A stretch of DNA of 13,403 nucleotides from IMG/VR virus record IMGVR_UViG_2713896778_000008; one strand, given 5' to 3'. Within the stretch, counting starts at the first letter, position 1; every line of letters begins with the position of its first letter. The DNA comes from a virus (lineage: Duplodnaviria > Heunggongvirae > Uroviricota > Caudoviricetes). A program made the position numbers. This document shows, piece by piece, positions 12,001 to 13,403 of the stretch.

Positions 12001-13403
12001 GTAACCAGTGGCCAGAAGAAACGTTTGGGTGAGGAGGATAGATGGCGTTCACTGACCTTGAATATCAAGCGGTCAAAAAAGAAGTTCACCAATTCATTGA
12101 AAGCATAAGGCCGCCTGAACATATCCGCAATGAACTGGATATTGTTTATAGCATCAATGACCAAACGATAGATATCGGCGAACAGCGCCCCGTGTGGCAG
12201 GGCAATCCAGGTGAAACAAACATCCTGCCATCAGCAAGAATCAAGTACATACGTTCTCTGGATAGATGGAAAATCTATTGGATGCGGAAGGATATGAAAT
12301 GGCATCAGTACAGTACTGAACTTTCGCTGACTGATGCGCTTGAGCTTGTGCGTGCTGACCCGGATTGCTGCTTCTTCGGATGAGTGAAGAGACGTTTGGG
12401 TGATAGGAAGTAAGTTTTATGTTGACGGCACAGTCAACTTGGCATAGATTAATTAAACCAAGCCCAGCCCCGTTCGCAGACAATTGTTAATATCTGCATA
12501 ACGGCTCTGGGCTATTTTTTTGGGACTCTTATGAAGAAAGCAGCAATTTTAATTGATGCGGGTTTTTTCATGCAGCGTGTTCATGCTACGCATCGTAAAC
12601 ACTTCGCCGAGCATGAACTGACTGCGCAATGCATAATGAAAGTAATATGGTCAATGGTTCTTTCCCATCTTAATGGAAAACGTCAATCACAAGAACGTAG
12701 GGAACCGCTTGAGCTTTATAGAATTTACTTCTATGACTGTCCACCACTCGACATTCAAACACGCCTTCCACTTCCTGAGCCTGGCAATAAGACGCCTGGT
12801 CGCAAGAATTTCAAACTCGAAAAATCATATATTCTGAGAACGGAGCTGCATGAAGAGTTAAGAAAAACTCGAAAAACAGCCTTAAGATTAGGGAATCTTG
12901 TTGATAATAAGCGATGGCAACTAACTACATTCTCCCTTGATGCTCTGATGAAAGGAACGAAAAAATGGGATGAACTGACAAATGATGATTTTTACTATGA
13001 CATCAAACAAAAACAAGTTGATATCAAGCTAGGGATGGATATCACGACTTTAGCTTATGAAAAACTTGTTGATGTAATTGTCCTTGTTGCTGGGGACTCA
13101 GACTTTGTGCCTGCCGCCAAACACGCCAGAATTAAAGGTATTGATTTTATTCTTGATCCACTAAGACAGAATGTTACCCCATCACTGTCAGAGCACATTG
13201 ATGGAGTTCAGTCATACAGCTTGATATCAGGACTTGCCGATGCTTTACATGTTGAGCCAGACCCGGCACCTGACTGGTGGGAAGATCGAAAAAAAGGCAA
13301 GCCTAGAGGAAAAAACAATAGCGGTAAACGCAGGTATGGAAACACTCAAGCTGAGTCTGCAAAGAAACATCAAAGAAATAAACGATAATCCCATCAACCC
13401 GGC

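Follow-up and report, generated by a model that had tools for sequence, protein, structure and literature searches.

The interval between the cI repressor gene and the pL-N region of a Stx2a-converting prophage of Escherichia coli carries two unrelated, independent accessory units and not a two-gene system. One is a single gene for a DUF3024 protein, and the other is a module of ~1.1 kb with a complete regulatory anatomy, in which a predicted NYN-domain nuclease is preceded by a structured leader RNA. We hold with moderate confidence that recombination placed the two in tandem and that the NYN gene encodes an RNase effector attenuated by its leader. A role for both units as anti-phage cargo is plausible. 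Both protein families were already annotated, and DUF3024 was already listed as a defense candidate; the novelty lies in showing that the units are independent, in defining the NYN moron and in a leader motif supported by covariation. In lambdoid prophages, the cI-pL interval offers a natural display of exclusion genes expressed by lysogens, and the present locus illustrates how it is built of separable, recombining units, with relics of cI 3' ends as the recombination junctions between immunity-region modules.

The window, which is the whole stretch of 13,403 nucleotides analyzed, is the early and immunity region of a Stx2a-converting phage of E. coli O121:H19 and matches many LC6160xx Stx2 phage records, as well as O121 chromosomes, at 100% identity. 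Its minus strand bears genes for Q, antirepressors, Dam, NinB, an intein-bearing DnaB-type helicase, O, cII (10562-10861) and Cro (10968-11195), the last two lying opposite cI. The gene for the cI-type repressor (11274-11981, plus strand), a LexA family regulator in RefSeq annotation, matches Pfam Peptidase_S24 (3.8e-16) and HTH_3 (1.2e-5). Two ORFs follow on the same strand, as the initial annotation had described, one of 113 aa (orf113, the DUF3024 gene, 12042-12383) and one of 285 aa (orf285, the NYN gene, 12531-13388). In the complete prophage the next gene past NYN is N, so that the position of DUF3024 and NYN matches that of rexAB in lambda, and the interval from cI to pL-N is filled by these two genes as rexAB fills it there. 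The assignment of the locus to the post-cI slot of a lambdoid prophage was thus borne out.

Independence of the DUF3024 and NYN units

The two genes had initially been described as one cassette. On that account they would form a single system, a toxin with its antitoxin or a sensor with its effector, expressed from pRM, an idea favored by their adjacency on one strand with 147 nt between them. We collected loci that contain NYN homologues, 80 of them genomic and 79 viral, together with 80 viral loci with DUF3024, and profile-searched all of their ORFs. Both genes occurred together in 4 loci, set against 132 with a NYN homologue and 72 with DUF3024, and three of these four are the same O121 phage. 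The fourth (L113) presents a second, divergent adjacency of DUF3024 and NYN, which speaks for a pair, but its NYN allele is also found in nine sister loci that lack DUF3024. The distribution of the genes largely refutes a two-gene system, and we consider that reading highly improbable.

The contexts of the individual genes tell the same story. NYN directly follows cI in 37 of 75 evaluable viral contigs, is reached through DUF3024 in 2 and lies in other contexts in 36. In Photorhabdus (L005, L114) it is flanked by tail genes I and J, and elsewhere it is convergent with a gene (ORF cluster c32) that appears phage-Q-like from its similarity to the Pfam-confirmed Q of the window. Among complete E. 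coli genomes (n = 5426), a cI-DUF3024 match is present in ~800, an intact NYN module in 74 and the tandem arrangement in 9.

Sequence at the junctions suggests how the tandem arose. Homology of the NYN module with cI-NYN prophages begins at position 12385, two bases past the DUF3024 stop codon, and collinear phages have other cargo at the place of this module. DUF3024 is flanked by an 18-nt direct repeat, GAAGARACGTTTGGGTGA, with copies at 12015-12032 and 12386-12403 (plus strand) that are 17/18 identical. In Sakai prophage Sp1 (L282) and in strain 214-4 (L283), the gene for a 237-aa lambda-type cI ends with an identical 18-mer, which supplies its last codons and stop (EETFG*). The first copy (GAAGAAACGTTTGGGTGA, encoding EETFG*) is just upstream of the DUF3024 start, and in most DUF3024 loci the 18-mer is found 27 nt upstream of the gene; the second copy marks the left boundary of the NYN module. 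As a separate relic of a cI 3' end accompanies each unit, each once sat directly behind such a cI, and the tandem is best explained by recombination within this shared sequence. A module boundary with a cI relic between the genes, as well as the promoter and terminator-like hairpin that also separate them (see below), further argues against a single two-gene system. Both EETFG* relics in the window sit downstream of a 933W-type cI.

DUF3024 behind cI

The 113-aa protein, which at first could not be placed in any family, belongs to DUF3024 (PF11225, 108.7 bits, E = 2.4e-31, residues 4-113) and to phrog_3467. It also matches the PADLOC model PDC-S43 (PDLC05018) from end to end (residues 1-113, E = 7e-42), and DUF3024 is thereby already listed as a single-gene defense candidate, PDC-S43 being a prediction only. 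No named system matches the NYN protein, to which PADLOC offers weak, partial matches (HEC-09, 2e-4 over 46 residues; "NYN," 1.4e-3 over 43 residues) and no match across most of either model. Structure prediction with AF2 gave a confident model of orf113 (pLDDT 89.6), in which a helix, a five-stranded sheet and a second helix (alpha-beta5-alpha) make up what is modeled as a small, soluble alpha/beta protein of compact fold. The family comprises ~1,300 clusters at 50% identity, and its members, of ~115 aa, are almost all stand-alone. Searching solved structures by sequence with DUF3024 returned chance-level matches only (E ~0.85). In the literature, we found no phenotype for DUF3024 or PDC-S43, and no experiment on DUF3024 or on any member of the NYN clade to which orf285 belongs.

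Expression of both genes from pRM had been proposed, and DUF3024 is probably cotranscribed with cI in the lysogen. Its start lies 60 nt past cI and is preceded by a strong ribosome binding site (RBS), GAGGAGG, and a scan of the cI-DUF3024 gap revealed no promoter- or terminator-like site. In phage 933W, the genes for cI, DUF3024, the next ORF and the kinase change expression together (PMC10789677). For NYN, by contrast, pRM expression is unlikely, given a conserved promoter of its own and a hairpin with a U-tract between the genes.

DUF3024 is the first gene past cI in nearly all of the 72 loci, and the cargo behind it falls into at least eight different sets. One is the 933W arrangement of the Stk kinase with a 153-aa protein; others comprise either of two unknown gene pairs, ParA-like ATPases, a HicB-family protein or NYN. 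The Stk module directly follows cI-DUF3024 in ~40% of DUF3024 loci. The kinase matches PD-T4-6 and mad6, in keeping with the initial claim that relatives carry defense cargo in this slot. The 933W Stk module is thus an alternative to NYN at the same site, from which it differs in being a protein kinase with a 153-aa partner, unrelated to NYN. A prophage remnant in the chromosome of Erwinia aphidicola (L284, 4001-6130) encodes a DUF3024 protein 59% identical to that of the window, again followed by a 153-aa ORF, a Ser/Thr kinase and a small ORF, although no cI gene is called directly upstream of them. DUF3024 may be functionally tied to the Stk module more than to other cargo.

The NYN module and its leader RNA

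The 285-aa protein contains the acidic motifs that had been noted (IDAGFF, DIKLGMDI and LVAGDSDF) and a Lys/Arg-rich tail. Its assignment to the NYN/PIN fold was upheld by a profile search, in which residues 158-205 match PF01936 with 36.8 bits against a curated cutoff of 24.2 (E = 6.8e-9). A partial match to TIGR00288 (5.5e-7) falls below the cutoff of that model, and phrog_5783 is matched from end to end. Homologues number more than 7,000, and six aspartates (D9, D69, D164, D170, D189 and D191) are invariant in 32 of them, down to 41% identity. With the Pfam threshold passed, these acidic residues invariant and a PIN-like alpha/beta fold found, orf285 qualifies as a true NYN/PIN-fold protein whose acidic site is intact, and it is predicted to be a metal-dependent RNase with a basic C-terminal tail. 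Solved structures searched by sequence and by profile yielded no relative. In comparison with NYN/LabA-like domains (PF01936) such as the MARF1 NYN domain (5yaa) and Vibrio VPA0982 (2qip), orf285 is about twice the minimal domain size, adding a C-terminal P-x-WW segment and the basic tail, and it is prophage-borne, with a dedicated RNA leader.

The annotation of this gene in public records is uneven. In the two records that we inspected (L001, 7332-8189; L283, 3147-4004), PGAP represents the intact 285-aa NYN gene as a "partial" pseudogene and a separate 117-aa NYN protein, and in the protein collection searched the full-length 285-aa sequence came from the Logan source only. As the gene is split in at least two RefSeq records, gene-based surveys that rely on them could miss NYN.

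Within the 146 nt upstream of the ORF is a putative sigma-70-type promoter, TTGACG-17-TAGATT (~12421-12450, plus strand), recognized by a consensus scan, from which transcription is predicted to start ~4 nt before a hairpin. Of 47 distinct leaders, 42 have the pattern TTGAC-N16-18-TAnnnT at a constant spacing from the hairpin. A palindrome, GTTGAC-N6-GTCAAC (12421-12438), spans the -35 element and the spacer, is present in 21 of the 47 and may be an operator; no cognate regulator was identified for it. The leader RNA itself (12461-12521, plus strand) consists of a three-tier hairpin of 53 nt (12461-12513; MFE, -26.5 kcal/mol) followed by an A and seven U residues (12514-12521). This conserved U-tract lies 10 nt before the ATG, and, going by consensus, it and the hairpin resemble an intrinsic terminator. 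A Shine-Dalgarno-like GGGA (12522-12525, plus strand) comes 5 nt before the ATG, with GGA or GGAG at the equivalent place in homologous leaders.

Comparison of diverse leaders indicates that the structure is maintained. In an alignment of 21 of them, double compensatory changes are seen in 13 of 17 base pairs. Paired cells amount to 95.5%; shuffled alignments give 82%, and sliding the partners lowers the figure to 25-44%. The phylogenetic relatedness of the leaders means that the shuffle statistics overstate significance, a bias to which the control with slid partners and the tally of 13 double-change pairs are less prone. The layout of promoter, hairpin and RBS 5' of NYN extends through Enterobacterales, Pseudomonas, Pasteurellaceae and Acinetobacter, to ~46% protein identity, and a covariance model of the leader matches directly 5' of every NYN gene at or above about that identity. 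The same model found no match in 80 DUF3024-only control loci (0.69 Mb), and Rfam produced none for the leader in 12384-12530 at E up to 1. Conservation, along with covariation, is shown for promoter and leader.

An exact-pattern scan for the hairpin in 2.9 million viral contigs returned 41 matches, and NYN lies downstream in 39. Of the two others, one (L261) adjoins the remnant of a deleted NYN gene. The second (L276, 3558-3699) is an identical hairpin in another prophage, where NYN is absent and a tRNA-Arg(TCT) follows immediately, with genes for holin and lysozyme farther on, which suggests that the hairpin can serve as an ordinary terminator. We also considered the leader as a decoy late-promoter/tR' unit under Q antitermination and dropped this idea as unsupported; the ORF upstream of the hairpin in L276 has no Q-family Pfam match, and the region downstream of Q in the O121 phage uses other terminators. 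An integron attC-like or other DNA-level hairpin was rejected, since a U-tract and an RBS follow the element and a promoter precedes it at fixed spacing.

At the 3' end, an intrinsic terminator appears to begin at 13389-13403 (plus strand) and to run past the end of the window. In an identical prophage (L001), the NYN stop codon is followed by a canonical terminator, CCCGGC-cacc-gaGCCGGG-TTTTCTTT, and then by the oL/pL region and N. The unit thus has a predicted promoter and terminator of its own and an ORF absent from collinear phages, which are the hallmarks of a moron. We conclude that it is autonomous and mobile, that its leader is structured and that its promoter-like and terminator-like elements are conserved. 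Extending from 12385 to just past 13403, it is a complete moron made up of predicted promoter, leader, RBS, nuclease ORF and predicted 3' terminator.

The module is also prone to decay. NYN is truncated in ~200 E. coli genomes, mostly O157:H7, including ECs_0273 of Sakai prophage Sp1, and it is deleted in L261. The truncated relic in Sp1 (L282, 3001-3536) retains the promoter, the leader RNA motif and the first ~118 codons, directly past the Sp1 cI.

Proposed function and comparison with known systems

How might such a module work? In the reading that we favor, the leader would act as an intrinsic terminator or attenuator. The hairpin and U-tract would insulate NYN from read-through from cI and DUF3024 (pRM), and of the transcripts that the module itself initiates no more than a fraction would reach the NYN ORF, so that a potentially toxic RNase would stay low. 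The by-product would be an abundant leader RNA of ~65 nt, whose conserved apical and internal loops suggest that it is specifically recognized. The simplest recognizer would be NYN itself, with autoregulation or neutralization by the RNA as the consequence. The RNase would then act on RNA in superinfection, and the function of NYN is probably exclusion or abortive infection. The location of the unit, its patchy distribution, its frequent decay and the validated exclusion genes found in the same slot point to a role that benefits the lysogen. For the module as a whole, we infer termination, RNase activity, toxicity and an anti-phage role.

A different possibility is that NYN is an RNase of the phage life cycle or of housekeeping, engaged in processing or turnover of transcripts from phage or host or in lysogeny control, with the hairpin as a terminator or insulator only. 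The gene occupies several prophage positions (past cI, at tail genes I/J and convergent with the Q-like c32), and the hairpin of L276 stands without NYN, both of which suit this view. So do distant homologues (~44% identity, shorter and without the leader) that recur among the same flanking ORF clusters in many Rhodanobacter and Dyella chromosomes (Xanthomonadales); this shared neighborhood across species suggests a non-defense role for the wider NYN family. Set against it are the moron-like scarcity of intact copies in E. coli and the frequent truncation or loss described above, the dispensability of NYN in sister phages that differ only by the NYN module and the promoter upstream of the hairpin at fixed spacing. 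On balance, we give a life-cycle role a low but appreciable probability.

The layout of the module also calls to mind type III toxin-antitoxin systems (ToxIN, AbiQ/antiQ, CptIN and TenpIN), in which a promoter, a structured noncoding RNA, an intrinsic terminator and an endoribonuclease-type gene follow one another. On a type III-like account, the terminated leader RNA would be an antitoxin that binds and inhibits the NYN RNase, and infection would upset the ratio of RNA to protein and lead to abortive infection. The gene order mirrors ToxIN logic, including a predicted terminator-like element between the RNA and the toxin gene. The leader is strictly linked to NYN, with covariation and conserved loops, and the protein has a basic C-terminal tail. 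The likeness to the NYN unit is, however, one of layout only. Type III systems use a tandem-repeat RNA and a ToxN fold, whereas the NYN unit has a single hairpin and a NYN/PIN fold, not that of ToxN or AbiQ; TRF detected no tandem repeats over 11900-13403, and the leader has no direct repeats. That the hairpin occurs once without NYN is a further objection. Such an account is, in our judgment, improbable.

A broader version of this proposal, which we regard as similarly speculative, is that promoter, hairpin RNA, terminator and NYN together constitute a new kind of module in gammaproteobacterial prophages, RNA-controlled and acting as a toxin or by abortive infection. In it, the abundant terminated leader RNA would directly neutralize or autoregulate the PIN-like RNase, and infection would lift this control. 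If true, it would extend type III-like logic to a single RNA hairpin combined with a toxin of unrelated fold, and it would echo the antiviral NYN RNases of eukaryotes, which include KHNYN, N4BP1 and Regnase-1.

Other comparisons place our favored reading, that of a leader-attenuated effector, in context. DUF3024 and NYN share with lambda RexA and RexB their place in a lambdoid prophage, between cI and pL, and a lysogenic role would be expected of them. RexAB forms an obligate pair that includes a membrane channel, whereas here the genes are independent, DUF3024 is modeled as a compact alpha/beta fold and NYN has its own promoter, and Pfam at E up to 0.1 assigns no RexA or RexB family to orf113 or orf285. 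The ribonuclease genes rnc and rne have autoregulatory 5' leaders, and in these, as in the NYN module, a conserved structured leader directly precedes a ribonuclease gene. The NYN leader differs in being also intrinsic-terminator-like, and NYN may bind or cleave it. The NYN unit is not RexAB, not a type II toxin-antitoxin pair and not a canonical type III system. Should the NYN moron prove protective, a PIN-like RNase effector with an RNA leader would be added to the prophage defense repertoire, in this case that of pathogenic E. coli, Pseudomonas and Pasteurellaceae.

The remainder of the window contains additional mobile and regulatory elements. Downstream of Q (1-247, minus strand), the C-terminal part of a DNA methylase survives as a remnant, and a tRNA is partially present (1-54). 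N runs mask parts of the window, which is evident from X runs in the translated ORFs at 1114-1761 and 3662-4014. Rfam matches above the gathering score on the minus strand (3272-3355, 3915-4000, 4023-4097 and 4058-4110) are to the families sRNA-Xcc1, C4 antisense RNA, isrK and the c4 a1/b1 targets, and these adjoin two antirepressor-type genes, of the KilAC/ANT (1761-2489) and ORF6N/P22_AR (2558-3232) types. The ensemble, inside the nin region, looks like a P1/P7-style, C4-controlled antirepressor module. Between Dam and NinB is a NUMOD4/HNH homing-endonuclease-like gene (4837-5439, minus strand), and the 797-aa DnaB-type replicative helicase (6927-9320, minus strand) has a LAGLIDADG-type insertion in mid-protein, likely an intein. 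In RefSeq, the helicase gene of an identical prophage is broken into three pseudogene pieces.
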